Assembly: GCA_963765205.1 (NCBI GenBank)
Contig: CAVXVB010000009.1
Coordinates: 1,120,001 to 1,184,000 of the forward strand
Source of the DNA: an uncultured Verrucomicrobiae bacterium
Lineage (GTDB): Bacteria; Verrucomicrobiota; Verrucomicrobiia; Opitutales; JABDGR01
Direction of reading: 5' to 3'
DNA length: 64,000 bases
Shown: in pieces, positions 43,387-52,635 of the stretch
How the letters are laid out: every line of letters starts with the position of its first letter
Numbering within the stretch: the first letter of the stretch is position 1
Made by a program: the position numbers and the translations under genes
Notes under the pieces: generated by a model
Database searches by the model: none
Told to the model about the DNA's origin: nothing
The model's input: the letters and a program-made list of their open reading frames with translations, nothing else

Positions 43387-44502
43387 CAGGGATAAACCAC
43401 TCGTCCGCGCAGCAACTGGTCGTCGCCCAAGGTGGCGTGCCGCACGTCGGCCAGCGTATAGGCGTCGGTCAAACGTTCGCAGAACGACCCGCTGAAAGCG
43501 GGCTGGGAGTTTTCATCGGCAAAAAACTTCGGCGCGCGGTAGGCGAACAAATAATTCATTTCCCGTGCCCGCAAAAACGCGCTCAACAAGGTCGGCCCAC
43601 CTTCGAGCAAAACCGCCGGCATTTCCACGCCTTCGCAAAATTCCCGCAACGCGGGAATCCAATCGTAGCCAAACAGCGCGGGCGCCGGAAAAACTTCCAC
43701 GCCCTGCTTTTCCAATTCCGCCTCGCGCTGGCGGTCGGGCCGGCGGCCGGCCAGCACCACGGTTTGCTTCCGATACTCGTCCGCATAAACATGGGGCAGC
43801 GGTTTCGTCACCGTCCGCAAGGTGCGGTCGAAAATGAAGCGTTGCGGGCACCACACGCTCGTGCCGATTTCGGCTGGTGAGCCGTGGGTTGTCCGCCAGC
43901 ACTGTGCCCGCGCCGACGCCAATCGCCGGAAACAGCCGCCGCCAGCGCATCGCGTCGCGCCGCGCCGCCGCGCCCGTGATCCACTGGCTCTCACCCGTGC
44001 TCGTCGCCACGCGGCCATCCAGCGTCGTCACGATTTTCCCGGCGATCAGCGGCGTCTCTTTGGTGATCCAATGATTGAAAATAAAATTCAGATCGGTGCA
44101 TTCCTCGGCGAGCACGCCCTCGACCACTTCAACACCCGCGGCGCGCAACAGCGCAAACCCGCGGCCCAAATGCTGCGGGTTCGGATCCGCCGCGCCGGCG
44201 ACGACGCGCTTGATCCCGGCGCGAATGATGGCCTCCGTGCAAGGCGGCGTGCGGCCGGTGGTCGAGCACGGTTCGAGGGTGACATACAGCGTCGCCCCCG
44301 GCGCCGGCGCGCGGCCCAGGTTGGTGAGGGCCACGACTTCCGCGTGCGGTTCGCCAGCGCGCGCGTGATAACCATCGGCCACCACGCGGCCGTGCTCGAC
44401 GATCAGGGCGCCGACCATCGGATTCGGATGCGTCGCGCCCCAGCCGCGGCGGGCGGCTTCGAGGGCGCGGCGCATCAAGCCCGTCTGGTTTTCGGCGCTC
44501 AT
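43386..44502 (-). CDS. ribD: Riboflavin biosynthesis deaminase/reductase; apparent extra base at 43868-43870
   Basis: PNPMVG, HAE, TLEPC...PPC and SQWITG in one frame; LEGGPTL in a second frame. Confidence 0.92.
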
Positions 44503-44523
44503 GGTTCGGCTATAAACAAAATT

Positions 44524-45156
44524 TCAGCCGCGCACGAACATGTTTGTGGCGCGTTCGCGGGCCAGGGTCGTGGCCGGGCCGTGGCCGGGATACAAAACCG
44601 TGCCGCCGGGCAGCGTGTAAATTTGCGTGCGAATCGAATTTTCCAGTTGCCGCCAGTCGCCGCCGGGCAAATCCGGCCGGCCCACCGCACCCGCGAAAAT
44701 CGCATCGCCGACAAATGCGGCGTTCGCTTCCGCATTATAAAACACGACGTTGCCCGGCGCGTGGCCGGGAACATGGCGCACTTCGAAGCGCAGACCCGCG
44801 ATGTCCAAAATTTCTCCAGCCTTGATAAAATGGTCCACGCGCGCCGGTTCGATGTCGAGCCCCGGCAGCATGAACCCCGCCTGCTGCATCGGGTTCTCGA
44901 TCCAGTCGCGGTCGTCGGCGTGCGCGTAAACAACGGCGCCCGCCGCGCGGCAGGCCGCGGCATCGGCCATGTGGTCCCAGTGGCCGTGCGTGAGCAGCAG
45001 CGCCGTCAGCCGCCGATGGCTTTGGGCCAGGGCCGGCAAAATCGCCGTGAGCGCGCCCGGCGGGGCGTCCACCAGCACGGCGTCGTCGCGGCCCGGCGCG
45101 AAGAGCAGGTAGGCGTTGGTGTCGAGCGGAGGAAGGGGAAAGGTCTGAATCTGCAC
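44524..45156 (-). CDS. MBL-fold metallo-hydrolase (glyoxalase II-like)
   Basis: THGHWDH, PGHAPG, GDAIF and PGHGP. Confidence 0.9.
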   Translation of the reverse strand: MQIQTFPLPPLDTNAYLLFAPGRDDAVLVDAPPGALTAILPALAQSHRRLTALLLTHGHWDHMADAAACRAAGAVVYAHADDRDWIENPMQQAGFMLPGLDIEPARVDHFIKAGEILDIAGLRFEVRHVPGHAPGNVVFYNAEANAAFVGDAIFAGAVGRPDLPGGDWRQLENSIRTQIYTLPGGTVLYPGHGPATTLARERATNMFVRG

Positions 45157-45321
45157 AGGGCGCAAGGCTGGCCGCGCGGCGCGCCCGCTGGCAACAGGAA
45201 ACTGGCGGGGCTTTGGCCTATTTTCGCCGGGGCGATTTTTCGCTTTGCCCGGCCGGGCAATTCCCGCTTTGCTGTTCCCTTTGGCCGGGACGCTCCCAGC
45301 CCCGCCCACCACTTTTCCTCC

Positions 45322-46422
45322 ATGAATAACCTGCGCATCGCCATCCTGCCCGGTGACGGCATCGGCCCCGAAGTCATGGCCGTCGCCCTGCAAATTTTGG
45401 CGAAATCCGCCGCCCAGCACGGTTTCACCGTCGAGCACGCGACCTGGGACGTGGGCGGCATCGCCATTGACCGGCATGGCTCGCCCCTGCCCGCCGCCAC
45501 GCTCGACGCCTGCCGCGCGGCCGACGCGATTTTGTTCGGCTCCGTCGGCGGCCCCAAATGGGAAAAGCTCCCGCCCAAGGAGCAGCCCGAGCGCGGCGCG
45601 CTCCTCCCCCTGCGCAAGGAATTCAAATTGTTCGCCAACCTGCGCCCCGGCCTGCTCTACCCCGAGTTGGTGGACGCCTCGCCGCTCAAACGCGAACGCA
45701 TCCCCAACGGCATTGACATGGTCTGCGTGCGCGAATTGACCGGCGGCATTTACTTCGGCCAGCCCAAGCAAACGCGCACCCTCCCTGACGGCGACATCGA
45801 GGCCGTGGACACCATGGTTTACAAAAAGAGCGAAATCGAGCGCATCACCGAAGTCGCCTGCCGCGCCGCGCTCGGCCGCGGGAAACGCCTCTGCTCGGTG
45901 GACAAGGCCAATGTGCTCGAAACTTCCGTCCTCTGGCGCAAAACGGTCGTGGACTACGTCGCGAAAAACTATCCCGCCATCACGCTCTCGCACCTTTACG
46001 TGGACAACGCGGCGATGCAGCTCGCGCGCGACCCCAACCAGTTCGACGTGATCGTCACCGAAAACATGTTCGGCGACATCCTCTCCGACGAGATGGCCGT
46101 CGTCTGCGGCTCGCTCGGGATGCTCGCCTCGGCCAGCCTCGGCGCGGGGCACAACCGCCACGGCTTCCCCTTCGGTCTGTATGAGCCGGCCGGTGGCACC
46201 GCGCCCGACCTCGCGGGCAAAAACCTCGCCAACCCCTGCGCGCAAATTTTGAGCGTCGCGCTCATGCTGCGCCACAGCTTCGGCCTGGAAGCCCCCGCCG
46301 CCGCCATCGAAAAAGCCGTCCGCAACACTGTCACCACCGGCACCCGCACCGGCGACATCGCCTTCGGCCAACCCTCCGTCGGCACCAAGGAAATGGGCGC
46401 GGCCATCCTCGCAAAACTCTGA
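45322..46422 (+). CDS. leuB: 3-isopropylmalate dehydrogenase
   Basis: GDGIGPEV, RELTGGIYFG, DKANVL and NMFGDILSDE. Confidence 0.98.
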   Translation: MNNLRIAILPGDGIGPEVMAVALQILAKSAAQHGFTVEHATWDVGGIAIDRHGSPLPAATLDACRAADAILFGSVGGPKWEKLPPKEQPERGALLPLRKEFKLFANLRPGLLYPELVDASPLKRERIPNGIDMVCVRELTGGIYFGQPKQTRTLPDGDIEAVDTMVYKKSEIERITEVACRAALGRGKRLCSVDKANVLETSVLWRKTVVDYVAKNYPAITLSHLYVDNAAMQLARDPNQFDVIVTENMFGDILSDEMAVVCGSLGMLASASLGAGHNRHGFPFGLYEPAGGTAPDLAGKNLANPCAQILSVALMLRHSFGLEAPAAAIEKAVRNTVTTGTRTGDIAFGQPSVGTKEMGAAILAKL

Positions 46423-46545
46423 ACATCCAACACTCAACATCCAACGCCCAATATCGAACATCCAACATCCAATAAAAAGGCAAAAACGCTTGGCTGCCTT
46501 TCATTGGATGTTGGATGTTGAGCGTTCGATGTTGGATGTTGAATT
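46422..46545. repeat. Inverted heptamer arrays (AACATCC)x7 / (TTGGATG)x6 between leuB and alaS
   Basis: Read directly; the spacer also pairs (AAAGGCA/TGCCTTT). Confidence 0.85.
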
Positions 46546-46551
46546 TTGATC

Positions 46552-49500
46552 ATGACTTCTTCCCAAATTCGCCAGTCGTTCCTCGACTTCTTCCGGTCGA
46601 AGGGCCACACCGTCGTGCCCTCCTCGTCGCTGCTGCCGGACTCGCCGAACCTGCTCTTCACCAACGCGGGCATGAACCAGTTCGTGCCGATCTTCCTCGG
46701 CGAGCGCCGCGCGGACGTCTCGAAATGGGCCGGCGCGACGCCGGGCCTCGACACCCGCGCCGCCGACACGCAGAAGTGCATCCGCGCCGGCGGCAAACAC
46801 AACGATCTCGAGGACGTCGGCCTCGACACCTACCACCACACGTTTTTCGAAATGCTCGGCAACTGGTCCTTCGGCGACTATTTCAAAAAGGAGGCCATTG
46901 ACTGGGCTTGGGAATTGATCACCGAAATTTGGAAATTTCCCGCGAACCGGCTCTACGCCACGGTTTATAGCCCCGATAAATCGAAAGGCGACCCCAGCGA
47001 CTTCGACCAGGAGGCCTGGGACGTGTGGGCCGGCCATTTTCGCCGTGCCGGACTCGACCCCAAAATCCATATCGTCAGCGGCAACAAAAAGGACAATTTC
47101 TGGATGATGGGCGACACCGGCCCCTGCGGCCCGTGCAGCGAATTGCATGTGGATTTGACCCCGGCAGGCGACACGCAAGGCGCGCTCGTCAATAAAGGCG
47201 ACGCCCGCTGCATCGAAATCTGGAACCTCGTCTTCATCCAATTCAACGCTAGAATCACCAAGTATAAACGCGAGGAAATTGTCTCGGGTCATTATATCGA
47301 TATTCCAATCGAATGGGCGTTCGACCCATTATCTGCGAAACACGTGGACACCGGCATGGGCTTCGAGCGTGTGACGAGCATCATCCAGGGCACCAAGAAT
47401 TTCACCGATTTCCCAAACGCGAAAATCTCGAACTACGAAACCGACATCTTCCGCCCCATCTTCGACGAAATCGAAAAACTCAGCGGCAAGCAATACACCT
47501 CGACATTACCGCAGCCTGTCTCAGCGCCAGCTTCTCCTTCTTCCTATTCTTCTCCGTCATCTTCCACCACGGAAAAAACCGTCGTTTCTCCCGCCCCCGG
47601 TCATGCGCTCGATTCTTCTGTCCCGGGGAGCGCGACCGTCCCGGTCGCCGCCGTCGGCGTCCCGCCGACGGCACCAGCCGCCCCCGTCCTTTACCACAAG
47701 CGCCGCCTCCCCCACTTCGAACGCCCCTGGTCGAAATACATGGCCACCTTTTCGACCCACGAACGCCGCCCCCTGTCCCCCCGCGCCCGCGATTTGGTTC
47801 TCAAAAGCCTCCTCTTCGGCCATCACCAAAACCGCTACCAAATCTATGTGGCCTGCGTCATGCCCGATCATGTCCATTTGCTTTTCGAACCGCAAATCAA
47901 GGAGCGATCCCAGAATGACAACCCCGTTTTTTGGGGGCTAACGGATATTTTGCATTCCATCAAGTCCTTCACCGCGCACGAAATCAACAAGCTGGAGGGC
48001 GGCAGCGGACAAGTTTGGGAAAATGAATCTTTCGACTGGCAGATTCGCGGCGAGGCGGATTTGTGGGAGAAATTCAAGTATGTCTGTGCAAATCCCGGGA
48101 AGGATGGTTTGGTCAAGGAAGGCGAGGATTACGCGTGGTTGTGGACGCCCGACCAAGCATCTACTGCGCGAGACGCGCAGCAGGGCGACCGGGACGGTCG
48201 CGCTCCCCGGGACGAAGAATTCCCGACCAAGGAACAAATCCAGATTGACGTGGCCTTCCGCGTCATTGCCGACCACATCCGCACCCTGAGTTTCGCCATT
48301 GCGGATGGCATCCTCCCCGGCAACAACGACCGCAATTACGTTCTGCGCCGAATTTTGCGCCGGGCAATAAGTTATGGACGCACTCTCGGGTTCCAAGAAC
48401 CGTTCTTTTATAAATTGGTTAATGTTTTGGCTTCAACAATGGGAAGTGTTTTTCCTGAAATTCGAACTAATCTTACGAAAGTAAAGGATGTGATCTTTAG
48501 CGAAGAAGCGTCGTTTAATAAAACCATCGATCGTGGTTTAGCAATTTTAACTCATGCAACTGAACGTGGATCTCAAATAACTGCTGCGGCTGGTGGTGAA
48601 TATACTTTTCACATTAAAGACCCAAATGGGGTTTCCATAAAAGTCCACGCTGTAAGGCTCGCAAATTTAATCAAAGGCGAAACTAAAAATTGTATAACTG
48701 GAGAATTTGCCTTTCTTCTCTATGACACCTACGGCTTTCCTGTGGATTTGACCGCATTAAAGGCTCGTGAACGTGGTTTGCTTGTCGATTTCGAGGGATT
48801 TAACATTTGCATGGAAATGCAGCGCGCCCGCGCGCGCGCCGCGCAGAAAAAGACCGTCATCGAACTTTCCCAAATCGAAGCCAAGACGCCGACGCATTTT
48901 CTGGGCTATGACCACAATCACATCGGCGCGGATGTGCAGGAGGTCGTGGTGGTGAAGGACAAGACGGTCGTAGTCGTGAACAATTCCGTTTGCTATGCGG
49001 AGATGGGCGGGCAGGCGGGCGACACGGGCGAACTGGAAAGTTCCGGCCACCATTGGCGCATCACCAACACGCAAAAATCCGGCGCAACCTGGCTGCATTT
49101 CATCGAGGGCGGCGAAGCTCCGCAGGCGGGCGCGCATGTGACGGTCAAGGTGGACGGCCCCCGCCGCGCCGCCATCGAACGCCACCACACCGTGACGCAC
49201 CTGCTGCACTGGGCGCTGCACGAGGTGGTCAGCCGCGACGCGACGCAGAAGGGTTCCTCCGTCGGGCCGGACAAGTTGACCTTCGACTTCAACAGCGCCG
49301 CGCTGACGCCCGCGCAAATCGCGGAAATCGAAAAACTCGTCAACGCCCGCGTGCGCGAAAACGCGCCGGTCTCATGGGGCGATTTCCCCTACGCCGACGT
49401 GAAGGGCCGCCCGGAGGTCATGCAGTTTTTCGGCGACAAATACGGCGACGTCGTGCGCGTCGTGCAAATCGGCGGCCACGCCGATAAAGACGCGCACGGC

Positions 49501-50235
49501 AAACTCCACCCGCGCCTCGACGGTTACTCGATGGAATTGTGCGGCGGCACGCATGTGCGCCAAACCGGCGACATCGGCCTCTTCAAAATTCTGCACGAAA
49601 GCGCCATCGCCGCCGGTGTGCGCCGCATCGAGGCCGTCGCGGGCGAAGCCGCGGCAACCGCCGTCGTCCAACTGGCCCAGGAAGCACGCGAACTCGAAAA
49701 GTCGCTCGCCGACCTTGGCGGAAAATTTTCCGGCGCGGCGATTCCCCTCCCCGCCGGCACGCCCGACATTGAAACCGCGCAAGCCCTCGATCAACGCGTG
49801 CGCGACCTCCAGCAAGCCCTCACCGACCAAAAAGCCGCCATCGAAAAATCCCGCCGGGCCGAGCAGCAGAAAAACGCCGCCGGCCTCGCCGACAATCTGG
49901 CCGCCGCAGCCATCGTCAAAGGCGCGCTCAAATTCATCGTGGCCGTGGTGGACGCGCCGCCTGGCAGCCTGCGCGACATCGCCGTGCAGGCGGGCAAAAA
50001 AATCGGCCCCGGCGTCGTTGTCCTCGGCTGCGCGGCGGACGGCAAAACCGGCGTCGTCGCGCTGTGCTCGCCGGAGGCTATTGCCGCGGGCCACGCCGCC
50101 GGGAAAATCGTCGGCGACCTCTGCGCGCGGTTGGGCGGCAAAGGCGGCGGTAAGCCGGACTTCGCCCAAGGCGGCGGCAAGGACGCCGCGCAACTTGACG
50201 CCGTGTTAAAAAACTTTCGTGAACAAATCCGCTAA
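46552..50235 (+). CDS. alaS: Alanine--tRNA ligase with a large in-frame insertion (1227 aa)
   Basis: LFTNAGMNQF, FEMLGNWSFGDY, DTGMGFER, LYDTYGFP, HTVTH/ELCGGTH editing site and GGKGGGKPDFAQGG. Confidence 0.97.
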   Translation: MTSSQIRQSFLDFFRSKGHTVVPSSSLLPDSPNLLFTNAGMNQFVPIFLGERRADVSKWAGATPGLDTRAADTQKCIRAGGKHNDLEDVGLDTYHHTFFEMLGNWSFGDYFKKEAIDWAWELITEIWKFPANRLYATVYSPDKSKGDPSDFDQEAWDVWAGHFRRAGLDPKIHIVSGNKKDNFWMMGDTGPCGPCSELHVDLTPAGDTQGALVNKGDARCIEIWNLVFIQFNARITKYKREEIVSGHYIDIPIEWAFDPLSAKHVDTGMGFERVTSIIQGTKNFTDFPNAKISNYETDIFRPIFDEIEKLSGKQYTSTLPQPVSAPASPSSYSSPSSSTTEKTVVSPAPGHALDSSVPGSATVPVAAVGVPPTAPAAPVLYHKRRLPHFERPWSKYMATFSTHERRPLSPRARDLVLKSLLFGHHQNRYQIYVACVMPDHVHLLFEPQIKERSQNDNPVFWGLTDILHSIKSFTAHEINKLEGGSGQVWENESFDWQIRGEADLWEKFKYVCANPGKDGLVKEGEDYAWLWTPDQASTARDAQQGDRDGRAPRDEEFPTKEQIQIDVAFRVIADHIRTLSFAIADGILPGNNDRNYVLRRILRRAISYGRTLGFQEPFFYKLVNVLASTMGSVFPEIRTNLTKVKDVIFSEEASFNKTIDRGLAILTHATERGSQITAAAGGEYTFHIKDPNGVSIKVHAVRLANLIKGETKNCITGEFAFLLYDTYGFPVDLTALKARERGLLVDFEGFNICMEMQRARARAAQKKTVIELSQIEAKTPTHFLGYDHNHIGADVQEVVVVKDKTVVVVNNSVCYAEMGGQAGDTGELESSGHHWRITNTQKSGATWLHFIEGGEAPQAGAHVTVKVDGPRRAAIERHHTVTHLLHWALHEVVSRDATQKGSSVGPDKLTFDFNSAALTPAQIAEIEKLVNARVRENAPVSWGDFPYADVKGRPEVMQFFGDKYGDVVRVVQIGGHADKDAHGKLHPRLDGYSMELCGGTHVRQTGDIGLFKILHESAIAAGVRRIEAVAGEAAATAVVQLAQEARELEKSLADLGGKFSGAAIPLPAGTPDIETAQALDQRVRDLQQALTDQKAAIEKSRRAEQQKNAAGLADNLAAAAIVKGALKFIVAVVDAPPGSLRDIAVQAGKKIGPGVVVLGCAADGKTGVVALCSPEAIAAGHAAGKIVGDLCARLGGKGGGKPDFAQGGGKDAAQLDAVLKNFREQIR
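47620..48213 (+). mobile_element. REP-flanked RAYT (Y1 HUH transposase) module embedded in frame in alaS
   Basis: RRLPH, VMPDHVHLL, IKSFTA, VWENESFD and YVCANP; perfect 30-bp inverted repeats at 47620-47649 and 48184-48213. Confidence 0.88.
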
Positions 50236-50239
50236 ATCC

Positions 50240-50515
50240 ATGACCTCCGCCGAAAAAGCCGCCTGGCGCGCCCGCGCGCAAACGCTCAAGCCCGCTGTGA
50301 AAGTCGGCCGCAGCGGCGTCACCCCTGCCTTGGTCAAGGAACTCGATCTCGCCCTCCGGCGCATGGAGCTGGTCAAGGTGCGCTTTTCCGAAGGCCGCGA
50401 CCTCCTGCGCGACCAGTGCGCCGAACTCGCCGCGGCGACCCAATCAGACTGCGTCGGCGGCCTCGGCCATGTGGCGTCCTTCCACCGACCTTTGGCCACC
50501 AAGAAGCTGGGTTAG
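50240..50515 (+). CDS. YhbY/CRM family RNA-binding protein
   Basis: RARAQTLKPAVKVGRSG...ELVKVRF. Confidence 0.88.
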   Translation: MTSAEKAAWRARAQTLKPAVKVGRSGVTPALVKELDLALRRMELVKVRFSEGRDLLRDQCAELAAATQSDCVGGLGHVASFHRPLATKKLG

Positions 50516-50611
50516 CGGCGCCGGTGGCGGCCTAATCCCCAAGGGCGATATTTGGCGAACATACTGCGCAAAAGATTGCGCCGCGCCAGGCAGGCGGGTT
50601 TAATCCGGGAT

Positions 50612-51364
50612 ATGCCGGATGATTCCGCCCCACCCTTCTCCCGCCCTGATGGCCGCGCCGTGAACCAAATGCGCGCGGTGTCGTTCGCGCCGGGGATTGC
50701 TCCGCACGCGCATGGCTCCGTCCTGGCACGGTTTGGGGACACGGCGGTGATCTGCGCGGCGATGATCGAGGACCGGGTGCCCCCGTGGATGACGCAGCAG
50801 CGTGTGCCCGGCGGGTGGCTGTCGGCGGAGTATTCGCTGCTGCCCTACTCGACGCTCGAGCGCAAGCCGCGCGACATTGCGCGCGGCAAGCTGGACGGGC
50901 GTACGGTCGAAATCCAGCGCCTCATCGGCCGGGCGCTGCGCGCGGTGGTGGATTTGTCCAAGCTGCCGGGGATGACGCTGTGGGTGGACTGCGACGTGCT
51001 CCAGGCCGATGGCGGGACGCGCACAGCGGCGATTTCCGGCGCCTATGTCGCCGCGCGGCTGGCGGAGCAAAAGCTGCGGGCGGAGGGCAAACTCAAGGCG
51101 AGCATTTTCACTGATTCGGTCGCGGCGGTGAGCGCGGGTATGTGGCGCGGGCGCGCCGTCCTTGACCTCAATTACCTCGAGGACCGGGACGCCGCGGTGG
51201 ACGCGAACATTGTGCTGACCGGCGCGGGGCGCTTCGTCGAAATTCAAAGCTCAGGCGAAGAGGCGACGTTTTCCGGCGAGGAGCTGGACGCGCTGGTGGC
51301 GCTGGCGCGGCTGGGCGCGGCGGAAATCACCGCGGTGCAGCAACAGACGCTGGGAGCCGGATGA
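50612..51364 (+). CDS. rph: Ribonuclease PH
   Basis: RPDGR, EYSLLP, EIQRLIGRALR and QADGGTRTA. Confidence 0.97.
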   Translation: MPDDSAPPFSRPDGRAVNQMRAVSFAPGIAPHAHGSVLARFGDTAVICAAMIEDRVPPWMTQQRVPGGWLSAEYSLLPYSTLERKPRDIARGKLDGRTVEIQRLIGRALRAVVDLSKLPGMTLWVDCDVLQADGGTRTAAISGAYVAARLAEQKLRAEGKLKASIFTDSVAAVSAGMWRGRAVLDLNYLEDRDAAVDANIVLTGAGRFVEIQSSGEEATFSGEELDALVALARLGAAEITAVQQQTLGAG

Positions 51365-51450
51365 CGGTCCCGATGATTTTTGGAATTGTCAAAGCAGCCG
51401 AGTCGCGATAATCAAGACCGTTTTGCCCCTCGCCACAACGCTCCGCCCGC

Positions 51451-52635
51451 ATGAACATCCACGAATACCAGGCCAAACATCTTTTCCGGGACTACGGGGT
51501 GGCGGTAGCGCGGGGCGCGGTGGCGAAAACGCCGGAGGAAATTGACGCCGCCCTGGCACAATTGCCGGCGGGGAAAATAGTGGTGAAGAGCCAGATTCAC
51601 GCGGGGGGGCGCGGCAAGGGCAAGTTTACCGATGGTTTTGCCGGGGGCGTGAAAATCGCCGGCAGTGCGGCCCAGGCCAAGGAGTTTGCCCTGCGGATGC
51701 TGGGCAACACGCTCGTCACCCACCAAACCGGCCCGGCGGGCCGCAAAGTGCAGACGATTTTTTTCACCGAGGCCACGGACATTGCCAAGGAATACTACCT
51801 AGCCATCCTGCTCGACCGCGCCACCAGCCAGCCGGTCATTATTGCCTCGACCGAAGGGGGCATGGACATTGAGCAGGTCGCGGCGCAGATGCCGGACAAA
51901 ATTTTGCGCCGGCAAGTGGACCCGGCGCTGGGCCTGCGCGCGTTCCAAGCGCGGGAAATCAGCTACCGACTGGGCTTGGGCGAAGAGCAAATTAAGCAAT
52001 TCGGCAAGCTGCTCGAAGGCGTCTACAAGCTTTTTTGGGACAAGGATTGCGCGATGGTCGAGATCAACCCCCTCATCGTCACGCCGGCCGGGCGGGTGGA
52101 GGCGCTCGACGCCAAGGTGTCGTTTGACGACAACGCGCTGTTCCGCCACCCTGATATTCAAGCGCTGCGCGATCTGAACGAGGAGGACCCGAAGGAGATC
52201 GAGGCCTCGAAATCCAACCTCAATTACATCGCGTTGGACGGCAACATCGCCTGCCTGGTCAATGGGGCGGGCCTGGCGATGGCGACGATGGACATCATCC
52301 AATACTTCGGCGGCACGCCGGCGAACTTCCTCGATGTGGGCGGCGGGGCGACGGAGGAGCAGGTCACCGCGGCGTTCCGCATCATCTTGAGCGACCCGGC
52401 GGTGAAGGGCATCCTGGTGAACATTTTTGGGGGCATCATGAAGTGCGACATCATTGCCCGCGGTGTCATCGCTGCGGCGCGCACCACGCAGCTCCAAGTT
52501 CCGCTGGTGGTGCGCCTCGAGGGCACCAACGTTGAGCTGGGGCGAGAAATCCTCGCGCAGAGCGGCCTCGCCCTGACGGCGGCCGACTCGCTGGCGGACG
52601 CCGCGCAAAAGATCGTGGCGGCATTAAAGGCGTGA
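51451..52635 (+). CDS. sucC: Succinate--CoA ligase beta subunit
   Basis: [30 protein letters not shown] and NIFGGI. Confidence 0.98.

Follow-up and report, generated by a model that had tools for sequence, protein, structure and literature searches.

We analyzed a 64,000-nucleotide window from an uncultured Verrucomicrobiae bacterium (genome G000, contig C9, positions 1120001-1184000) and found that its alaS gene, encoding alanyl-tRNA synthetase (AlaRS), carries inside its open reading frame (ORF) a REP-associated tyrosine transposase (RAYT) domain. The domain is flanked on both sides by inverted repetitive extragenic palindromic (REP) elements, which are read in the frame of the synthetase. 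Positions below are those of the window unless a contig is named. We think it probable that this is a frame-locked mobile REP-RAYT-REP cassette, tolerated in a surface loop of a working AlaRS, and that its transposase domain is, or until recently was, the mobilizer of REPINs (REP doublets forming hairpins). The initial annotation of this DNA had also proposed a whole REP-RAYT-REP unit in an AlaRS loop with the REPs serving as translated linkers, and profile hidden Markov models, fold comparison, and alignment to human AlaRS (4xem) bear this out.

Anatomy and identity of the cassette in alaS

The forward strand has a single open frame at 46546 to 50235, giving 1229 amino acids (aa) from the TTG at 46546 or 1227 aa from the ATG at 46552. 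The ATG is the likely start, since related proteins open with MTSxQIRQSF, and the gene (46552..50235, forward) is supported by the ORF call, Pfam, and NCBIfam. Pfam found tRNA-synt_2c, tRNA_SAD, and DHHA1 in the product together with a subthreshold Y1_Tnp match. NCBIfam TIGR00344 (alaS), which has a cut-off of 457 bits, was matched at 735.7 bits, the match being split into three segments (positions 1-254, 262-375, and 369-847). The first host part (46552..47517, forward) is the aminoacylation domain; it ends in GKQYTSTLPQP and aligns to 4xem up to about residue 300. The second (48226..50235, forward) holds the tRNA-recognition, editing (tRNA_SAD), and C-terminal DHHA1 domains, as assigned by Pfam, NCBIfam, and the 4xem alignment. 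On the human enzyme the insert falls between residues ~300 and ~309, after the final helix of the aminoacylation domain and before the one that opens the tRNA-recognition domain.

We compared this gene with alaS from 40 related genomes, 39 of which gave a match. An empty site reading STLPK(x)-GSTGDT-EQEKIDVAFRVIADH was seen directly in G001, G003, G004, G008, and G009, all of the same genus or family, with EQEKIDVAF as the continuation after GSTGDT. In G007, model positions 1-380 were matched in one ungapped piece, which makes it a sixth empty allele. Thus, the site is empty in all six family relatives whose alaS spans it (G002, G005, and G006 are unassembled there), and the extra DNA in G000 amounts to 708 nucleotides (nt) at 47518-48225 in place of 18. 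These in-frame bases encode 236 aa with no stop, so the 1227-aa alaS with a stop-free extra stretch at 47518..48225, described in the initial annotation, is confirmed by both the ORF and the relatives. Empty alleles, which that annotation had suggested seeking among relatives, show GSTGDT in six of six. Outside the insert, the gene is 80 to 84% identical to those of genus and family relatives in its N part and 67 to 77% in its C part, and it groups with them on the tree; we therefore take it as the orthologue and the organism's own alaS.

The insert opens with a lineage-specific, Ser/Pro-rich linker of 34 codons (47518..47619, forward). In the other fusions at this AlaRS site (termed site A), STLPQxx runs almost straight into the REP with no such linker. 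The left REP (47620..47649, forward) has a GGAG head, a 7-bp stem, and a 3-nt loop and is translated as VPGSATVPVA; it is followed by an inner hairpin with a 10-bp stem and a 3-nt loop (47650..47672, forward). The RAYT (HUH/Y1) domain occupies 47674..48183 (forward). Its end overlaps the right inner hairpin (48161..48183, forward), in which the stem letters differ from those of the left inner hairpin while the hairpin is retained. The right REP (48184..48213, reverse) is an inverted copy of the left one and is translated as GDRDGRAPRD. Four linker codons (EEFP..TK; 48214..48225, forward), delimited by the alignment with relatives, then lead into the resumed host sequence. Measured between the outer ends of the 30-bp arms, the cassette is 594 nt long (47620-48213), exactly 198 codons. 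The inverted repeat (47620-47649 and 48184-48213) is perfect over 30 bp and extends to 46 nt at 85% complementarity, the last 8 nt of the Ser/Pro linker (from 47612) lengthening it. As single-stranded DNA (ssDNA), each cassette end folds into two adjacent hairpins (7-bp and 10-bp stems, 3-nt loops), with z-scores of −2.6 to −4.5 against shuffled sequences.

From the end of the first host part up to the RRLPH motif, the frame contains no ATG, GTG, or TTG, and no stop interrupts it. The RAYT is thus a domain inside the 1227-aa alaS frame and lacks the own start and stop of a free-standing gene. An HVH motif is present at 47869-47877 and the catalytic Tyr at 48079-48081, within YVCANP, where the initial annotation had located the HUH motif and the tyrosine. 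Recomputation likewise reproduced its perfect 30-bp inverted repeats, each with GGAG and a 3-nt-loop hairpin, and gave the inner hairpins that it had also reported, which the ssDNA folds support, at 47650-47672 and 48161-48183.

We identified the embedded domain as a RAYT from NCBIfam, fold, and motifs. The cut-off of NCBIfam NF047646 (REP_Tyr_transpos), 80 bits, was passed narrowly: the insert by itself scored 80.4 bits, and a genome scan gave 81.3 bits; the whole 1229-aa protein gave 76.4 bits. Of the two Pfam families expected in the initial annotation, tRNA-synt_2c was found, but Y1_Tnp reached only 18.9 bits on the fusion, under its cut-off of 23, and the call does not depend on it. In 133 embedded and 120 shorter relatives, the HUH and Tyr columns are 99 to 100% conserved; among the 133 embedded domains, 99% retain the HUH histidines and 100% the Tyr. 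For the 236-aa insert, an AlphaFold2 model based on an alignment of 62 shorter relatives gave a predicted local distance difference test score (pLDDT) above 90 for core residues 68-215 and low confidence for the linkers on both sides. The top Foldseek match of this model in the PDB was 4er8_A (E = 4.1e-7; template modeling score, 0.64 on the target), the E. coli REP-associated tyrosine transposase (TnpA-REP) bound to a REP hairpin, followed by the ISDra2, IS200, and IS608 transposases (TnpA). With phmmer, the insert matched no PDB chain at E <= 0.01, so that 4ER8 was found by fold search only. A model of fusion residues 1-785, based on 49 aligned site-A fusions, was poor (mean pLDDT, 58.6; predicted template modeling score, 0.47), with even the conserved catalytic core below a pLDDT of 50, and we dropped it as a means of placing the RAYT on AlaRS.

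The RAYT clade, its hosts, and its REP sequences

A search with the 170-aa domain (E <= 1e-5) returned 302 proteins of 93 to 298 aa, which are 47 to 72% identical to it, typically ~205 aa long, and in some cases named RayT by the JGI, as well as 1160 proteins of 299 to 2000 aa. We examined 240 proteins, including the best 120 of the 1160 long matches, and these hold 253 domains. In the best 120 long matches, the domain sits at two fixed AlaRS sites, in threonyl-tRNA synthetase (ThrRS), and in MetH. By host, 90 of the 253 domains are at AlaRS site A, the site used in G000; 23 are at AlaRS site B, ~115 residues beyond site A; 2 are elsewhere in AlaRS; 12 are in ThrRS; 10 are in MetH; and 1 is in another host. 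The remaining 115 are in proteins of less than 300 aa, some of which are fragments of fusions. Nine AlaRS proteins carry two RAYT domains each. An automatic label already in use for such proteins is [quoted passage not shown]

The same picture emerged from genomes and metagenomes. A close relative of the domain (E <= 1e-20) was present in 6 of the 401 genomes of a phylum sample, always in an open frame of 730 to 1230 aa; three of the hosts are AlaRS with the domain at site B, and two appear, from their helicase motifs as judged by eye, to be RecG-like helicases. Within the GTDB family, 1 genome of 10, G000, has an embedded RAYT. At 80 metagenome loci, the host was AlaRS in 47 cases, MetH in 14, and ThrRS in 7, with a single HrpB-type helicase, while 11 showed no host domain; the RAYT is thus embedded in a host protein at 69 of the 80. 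Three other nearly complete genomes were checked for additional alaS genes, and each has the insert-bearing one only. Residence inside a gene is therefore the rule for this RAYT clade and not the exception. The premise of the initial annotation that REP-RAYT units (REPtrons) are normally free-standing does not extend to this clade, given the 69 metagenome loci and the six embedded copies in the phylum sample. An AlaRS-specific function is made less likely by the presence of the clade in at least five unrelated hosts.

Site B is also occupied in G000, by ~40 extra residues (48556-48678, residues ~671-711) with a short predicted beta-hairpin and no REP or RAYT signature; G003, G007, and G032 likewise hold 145 to 253 nt extra at this place, where other lineages carry a RAYT. 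At two metagenome loci (L155 and L162), the N-terminal S-methyl_trans domain of MetH is followed by an in-frame RAYT and, 5 to 7 codons on, by a stop; these are either split metH genes or stop-retaining cassettes.

To examine how the REPs are read, we searched the metagenome loci for the REP core GGGAGCGCG-N3-GTCCCG with up to 2 mismatches. Inverted cores were found on both sides of the RAYT at 29 of 47 AlaRS loci and 3 of 7 ThrRS loci, and the pattern was unmatched at the MetH and HrpB loci and at most loci without a host domain among the 80. At all 32 loci with paired cores, the left core is in codon phase 0, and at 30 of them the distance from core to core is divisible by three. Translation of the ends yields recurring peptides, GSATVPVASVGVPPTE at the left end and ARDAQQGDRDGRAP at the right end, and many fusions hold extra translated REP doublets.

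A comparison of the G000 cassette with eight related cassettes separated two kinds of selection. Across the RAYT, identity at the first, second, and third codon positions was 0.76, 0.86, and 0.44, so third positions are free while the first and second are kept, which points to selection on the protein. In the 30-bp REP arms the values were 0.82, 0.81, and 0.79; conservation that is equal at all codon positions implies selection on the DNA itself. At L088 and L091, both sides of a stem have changed together, as expected for compensatory substitutions. The ~205-aa relatives that appear free-standing (alignment of P0001-P0120) are also called with a translated REP inside the ORF, having GSA (near-)invariant at the left end and a right end resembling TAREARALP. 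Hairpin read-through may thus be clade-wide and not limited to embedded copies.

The initial annotation had proposed a genome-wide count of the GGAG REP. Allowing up to 2 mismatches, GTCCCGGGGAGCGCGNNCGTCCCGNNCGC occurs 26 times in G000 (12 forward, 14 reverse), twice of these in alaS; there were no hits in a reversed control, one in G006, and none in the other 39 relatives. With a shorter REP pattern the counts were 26 in G000 and 0 to 2 in each of the 40 relatives. The 24 copies outside alaS form 16 loci, comprising ~9 convergent doublets of ~155 bp plus singletons, and 0 of the 16 lies deep in a long open frame, all being located outside such frames or at their edges (judged on stop-to-stop frames and not on gene calls). 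The REPIN arms contain two hairpins each, and two arm types pair with each other. Three 45-nt REPIN arms are identical to one another, and the two 30-bp arms in alaS share one sequence with each other and with REP copies at other places in the genome.

G000 has three further ORFs resembling RAYT or IS200 transposases (C9:1288856-1289236, C9:1098005-1098295, and C5:557959-558183). They score 61.5, 45.5, and 30.6 bits, all under the NF047646 cut-off, and by their coordinates none is near a GGAG-type REP copy. This leaves the RAYT embedded in alaS as the only candidate partner of the REPINs. In other genomes with an embedded RAYT, the short REP pattern was found 18 times in G196 and 11 times in G375; in G319 it occurs twice, both times flanking the RAYT. 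G213 and G334 have none, and their REPs may differ from the pattern.

Two observations concern close relatives. G006, of the same genus and with no RAYT found, has one REPIN-like doublet beside a tRNA gene (contig C157:1700-1900; locus L071, ~1380-1540). Its alaS is unassembled at residues ~66-383, which would hold site A, and G006 may therefore carry the cassette too. G003, the closest relative with an empty allele, has a distant RAYT-like ORF (contig C63:8109-8720; locus L051) that is 42% identical over part of its length and lies in a 303-aa open frame, with the REP-like GGGAGCGCCGCCGTCCCGGCGGC at a distance of ~300 nt. Here, the same genus has a related REPtron that is apparently free-standing.

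History of the insertion and alternative explanations

On the RAYT tree, domains cluster by host and site, with 18 label changes compared to 113 for shuffled labels. Across 70 site-A fusions, RAYT identity correlates with host identity (Spearman, 0.33 to 0.35 over 2346 pairs) about as strongly as one host half does with the other (0.31), and mean pairwise identity is 78% for the RAYT and 83% and 69% for the host parts. There are exceptions, e.g., one pair with 99% identity in the RAYT and only 70% in the host C part. This suggests mostly vertical descent with some exchange. The fusion closest to G000 is P0135 (host, 86% identical; RAYT, 74%). The flanks read LPQ and EQIQ in the fusions compared to LPK and EQEK in the empty alleles; as these are only two or three positions, the sharing of flanking residues with the fusion clade is a hint of co-conversion and not evidence for it.

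Maximum-likelihood (ML) and FastTree host trees place G000 and P0135 with the empty G003 among empty alleles, in a clade with SH-aLRT support of 96 to 99 that is sister to 85 fusion rows. Such a placement needs either transfer into the same site or three losses, each restoring GSTGDT. A tree uniting all insert-bearing genes, in which the empty alleles form a basal grade, was not rejected by the approximately unbiased (AU) test (p-AU = 0.49; with IQ-TREE -fast, a log-likelihood difference of 30 and p-AU = 0.18), and for that reason we dropped a demonstrated gain by transfer. The fusion rows of the host tree had been picked for having the domain, and empty alleles within that clade are unsampled. 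On the RAYT tree, the G000 copy and P0135 take the basal position in the site-A clade, which long co-descent would produce. The cassette may stem from a single old insertion followed by losses or from a later transfer.

We next consider the assembly, which consists of 12 contigs and is 92% complete. A public soil metagenome run (X1) contains 74% of the sampled words. Its contigs match 47333-47648 and 48050-48495 without a difference or gap, bridging both junctions, and a third matches 47813-48006. X1 may be the source sample of G000, in which case it offers a second assembly of possibly the same reads and not independent DNA. One further X1 contig (depth, 5) joins 47496 to 47623 via 21 other letters and reads as a related allele in which the REP comes almost directly after STLPQ without the 34-codon linker. 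The initial annotation had asked whether reads crossed the junctions and, in arguing for selection on the frame, had invoked an assembly with many indels. The junctions are bridged by the X1 contigs, but the indel argument is not borne out at this locus, where no indels were seen relative to X1; nor is it needed. The only indel-ridden stretch that we met is the first ~8 kb of contig C7.

This stretch holds a second alaS-like sequence (C7:3-2430), which a genome scan found in pieces with at least 4 changes of frame and cut by the contig start. It is 29 to 50% identical to alaS of the G000 lineage, compared to ~95% over residues 75-325 for P0241, an ordinary 883-aa AlaRS whose named, more distant relatives are labeled Actinobacteria or Thermoleophilia. 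Such close identity, combined with numerous frameshifts and a place at the end of a contig, has the look of foreign sequence left uncorrected and not of a second gene of this organism, and we rejected this copy as a back-up alaS on account of its frameshifts (at least five), its truncation, and its foreign affinity. An uninterrupted second alaS, named in the initial annotation as what would undo the fusion claim, is thus not what C7 offers. After alaS, C7:1-8000 (locus L080) carries broken-looking partial aroE, gspE-like, and PSD-domain genes, and genes look whole beyond ~9.7 kb. C7:1-8000 is probably a chimeric or uncorrected contig end and could inflate estimates of contamination or duplication.

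Taken together, we favor the tolerated, frame-locked cassette. On this reading, the cassette would be transcribed and translated as part of AlaRS; its double-hairpin REP ends and Ser/Pro-rich stretch would form disordered linkers, and the RAYT would fold as a separate domain on a loop between the aminoacylation and tRNA-recognition domains while AlaRS keeps working. Judging from the sequence, the fusion protein is presumably made and charges tRNA, and its RAYT domain may be active. The host position would supply steady transposase expression without signals of the element's own. Any frameshift, stop, or imprecise deletion in the cassette would destroy an essential gene, so the cassette would be shielded from decay, an intein-like niche with nothing spliced out. 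The embedded RAYT most likely made, or still maintains, the 16 extragenic REP/REPIN loci, presumably by cleaving REP hairpins in single-stranded form and joining them, in the manner of E. coli TnpA-REP. A broader proposal, to which we give about equal credence and doubt, is that a whole RAYT lineage in Verrucomicrobiota and neighboring groups no longer has genes of its own and exists, together with its hairpin ends, as frame-locked cassettes that have neither start nor stop codons, within essential or housekeeping enzymes (AlaRS at two sites, ThrRS, MetH, and RecG- and HrpB-like helicases), with the AlaRS-RAYT fusion being an active, REPIN-maintaining enzyme.

Several observations count against the tolerated mobile cassette. 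At 4 of 61 strongly conserved columns, the G000 domain has a residue other than the consensus one (L57I, R122W, I137V, and W142G), and R122W and W142G are radical changes at positions that are 95 to 100% conserved elsewhere; deviation of this size or larger is seen in only 21 of 248 domains. The terminal branch of the G000 RAYT is 0.21 long, compared to a median of 0.097. From these data, the domain may be weakened, with its catalytic residues and ends intact. The nested position of G000 on the host trees, described above, is a further difficulty. In addition, the REPIN arms match the alaS ends exactly in the outer hairpin only, the inner hairpins being different, and with the pattern used a sizeable REP population is present in only 3 of the 6 genomes with an embedded RAYT.

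Because of the deviations and the long branch, we retain as an unlikely alternative that the cassette is an old insertion whose transposase is dead in G000, with the frame held by the need for alaS and the REPINs left as relics. The correlation between RAYT and host identity would fit the long vertical co-descent that this supposes. However, the HUH motif and Tyr are intact, the 30-bp arms have stayed identical to each other and to REPs elsewhere, as have the three 45-nt REPIN arms to one another, and 26 REP copies stand against 0 to 2 in relatives without a RAYT. Third codon positions in the RAYT clade are also free while first and second positions are kept. Recruitment of the HUH domain for a host function in AlaRS, e.g., the binding of nucleic acid hairpins, with mobility lost, seems to us rather improbable. 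The domain is conserved to a degree similar to that of the host (78% versus 83% and 69%) and mostly tracks the host gene, and RAYTs are generally held to be single copy and vertically inherited (PMC5581495). But all six family relatives manage without the insert, and the same clade lives at two sites in AlaRS, at two in MetH, in ThrRS, and in helicases, proteins with no obvious need in common. The flanking REPs are conserved at the DNA level with compensatory changes, needless for a protein linker, and extragenic REPINs with the same REP exist. Of the two readings offered in the initial annotation, a non-splicing parasite and a domesticated nuclease tethered to a tRNA ligase, the former better fits the spread over at least five unrelated hosts, which speaks against an AlaRS-specific role.

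It is hard to believe that the insert is removed before the mature protein forms, as an intron, at the RNA level like an IStron, or as an intein. Elements in essential genes do usually splice, and transposases of the IS200/IS605 family occur in self-splicing IStrons (PMC4227781). Against this, no Rfam family reached its gathering score on either strand of 44000-52000, which speaks against a group I or II intron or an IStron, and Pfam found no Hint or intein family in the protein. The insert starts with VSAP and ends with PTK followed by E, and not with the His-Asn that terminates inteins; the junction residues P|V and K|E provide no Cys, Ser, or Thr nucleophile at the insert start or at the +1 position. 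Dozens of diverged copies keep the frame through the whole cassette, and the REP has one and the same phase at 32 of 32 loci, neither of which would be needed if removal took place in RNA. We give equally little weight to an assembly artefact or a decaying alaS backed by another copy. The 12-contig, 92%-complete assembly and the alaS-like stretch on C7 could be taken to favor it, but X1 contigs cross both junctions without difference, the same architecture occurs in dozens of independent assemblies, and the C7 copy is frameshifted, truncated, ~95% like P0241, and set among broken-looking neighbors, while the C9 gene is the orthologue.

Two other features of the alaS region were noted. In the aminoacylation domain, a lineage-specific stretch ITKYKREEIVSGHYIDIPIEW (47242-47298; AlaRS residues ~233-251) is absent from human AlaRS in the alignment and is swapped for other letters in contigs of other metagenomes. 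Between the leuB stop and the alaS start (46423-46545) lies an imperfect palindrome of ~120 nt, with the octamers AACATCCA and TGGATGTT around an A-rich loop. Its 10-mer AACATCCAAC has 56 copies in the genome compared to ~8 by chance, the latter being a rough estimate that was not computed. The palindrome, which has no Rfam match, may represent a second small repeat family or a terminator.

Significance and relation to known systems

RAYTs and REPINs are a model for mobile DNA that settles into long-term vertical coexistence with bacteria, and PMC5581495 and PMC8049555 describe RAYTs as single-copy, vertically inherited partners of REPINs. A RAYT that is a domain of the sole alanyl-tRNA synthetase would be an extreme of this coexistence, in which its loss or breakage kills the cell and a promoter of its own is needless. 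REPs translated inside genes are already in print, including those of tRNA synthetases and of the verrucomicrobium Opitutus terrae (PMC3733652). In the full-text literature, exclusive of subscription journals and supplements, we found REPs in genes and no published RAYT read in frame inside a host gene. The window adds a clear connection of an embedded RAYT with a REPIN population that is spread over the genome and missing from relatives. It also provides a worked case of how a second alaS can mislead, and the caution that gain by transfer is undemonstrated. On the tolerated-cassette reading, a 200-residue nuclease with translated DNA hairpins would be tolerable in the core translation machinery; if the broader proposal above is also true, this would be the first transposase to borrow its expression and inheritance entirely from an essential host protein. 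In practice, annotation pipelines name such proteins "alanine--tRNA ligase-related" or drop long fusions, and the insertion sites in AlaRS, ThrRS, and MetH offer natural permissive sites for protein engineering.

The closest known systems are the REPtrons, exemplified by E. coli TnpA-REP (PDB 4ER8). They share with the G000 unit the fold and motifs of HUH/Y1 enzymes, REP hairpins in inverted orientation on either side, and one cognate RAYT copy per genome with dispersed extragenic REP doublets (~155 bp here). They differ in that a classical RAYT is free-standing with its own start and stop, whereas that of G000 is an internal domain of an essential enzyme and has REPs whose translation keeps to one phase. 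Another difference is the REP head, which is GGGGAG in G000 in contrast to the GTAG or CGTC tags given in PMC3733652. TIRtrons, whose transposases are termed TIRYTs (subclass 2.1 of Quentin et al., PMC6006769), similarly have a RAYT-like gene between long inverted repeats with a G-rich head. However, they are described as free-standing, and the G000 head GGGGAGCG fits their consensus GGGGWSAS, as quoted in PMC3733652, at only 7 of 8 positions.

In-genic REPs and the Rickettsia palindromic elements (RPEs) resemble the cassette ends in being palindromes translated as extra peptides of functional proteins, but they are short noncoding repeats only, while the G000 gene holds a whole unit with its transposase. 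IStrons, which combine a group I intron with a transposon of the IS200/IS605 family, show the same transposase superfamily made harmless inside genes. There, a ribozyme removes the IStron from the RNA (PMC4227781); here, none was found by the Rfam search and the frame is kept instead. Inteins are also selfish in-frame inserts at conserved, fixed sites of essential proteins, patchy among relatives, and damage to the insert likewise kills the host gene. The G000 insert gave no match to a Hint or intein family, lacks junction nucleophiles, would stay in the mature protein, and encodes an HUH transposase and not a homing endonuclease. If the broader proposal is true, the lineage would be a non-splicing counterpart of the intein lifestyle, and on the tolerated-cassette reading a DNA transposase would stand beside inteins as a second solution to life inside an essential gene.

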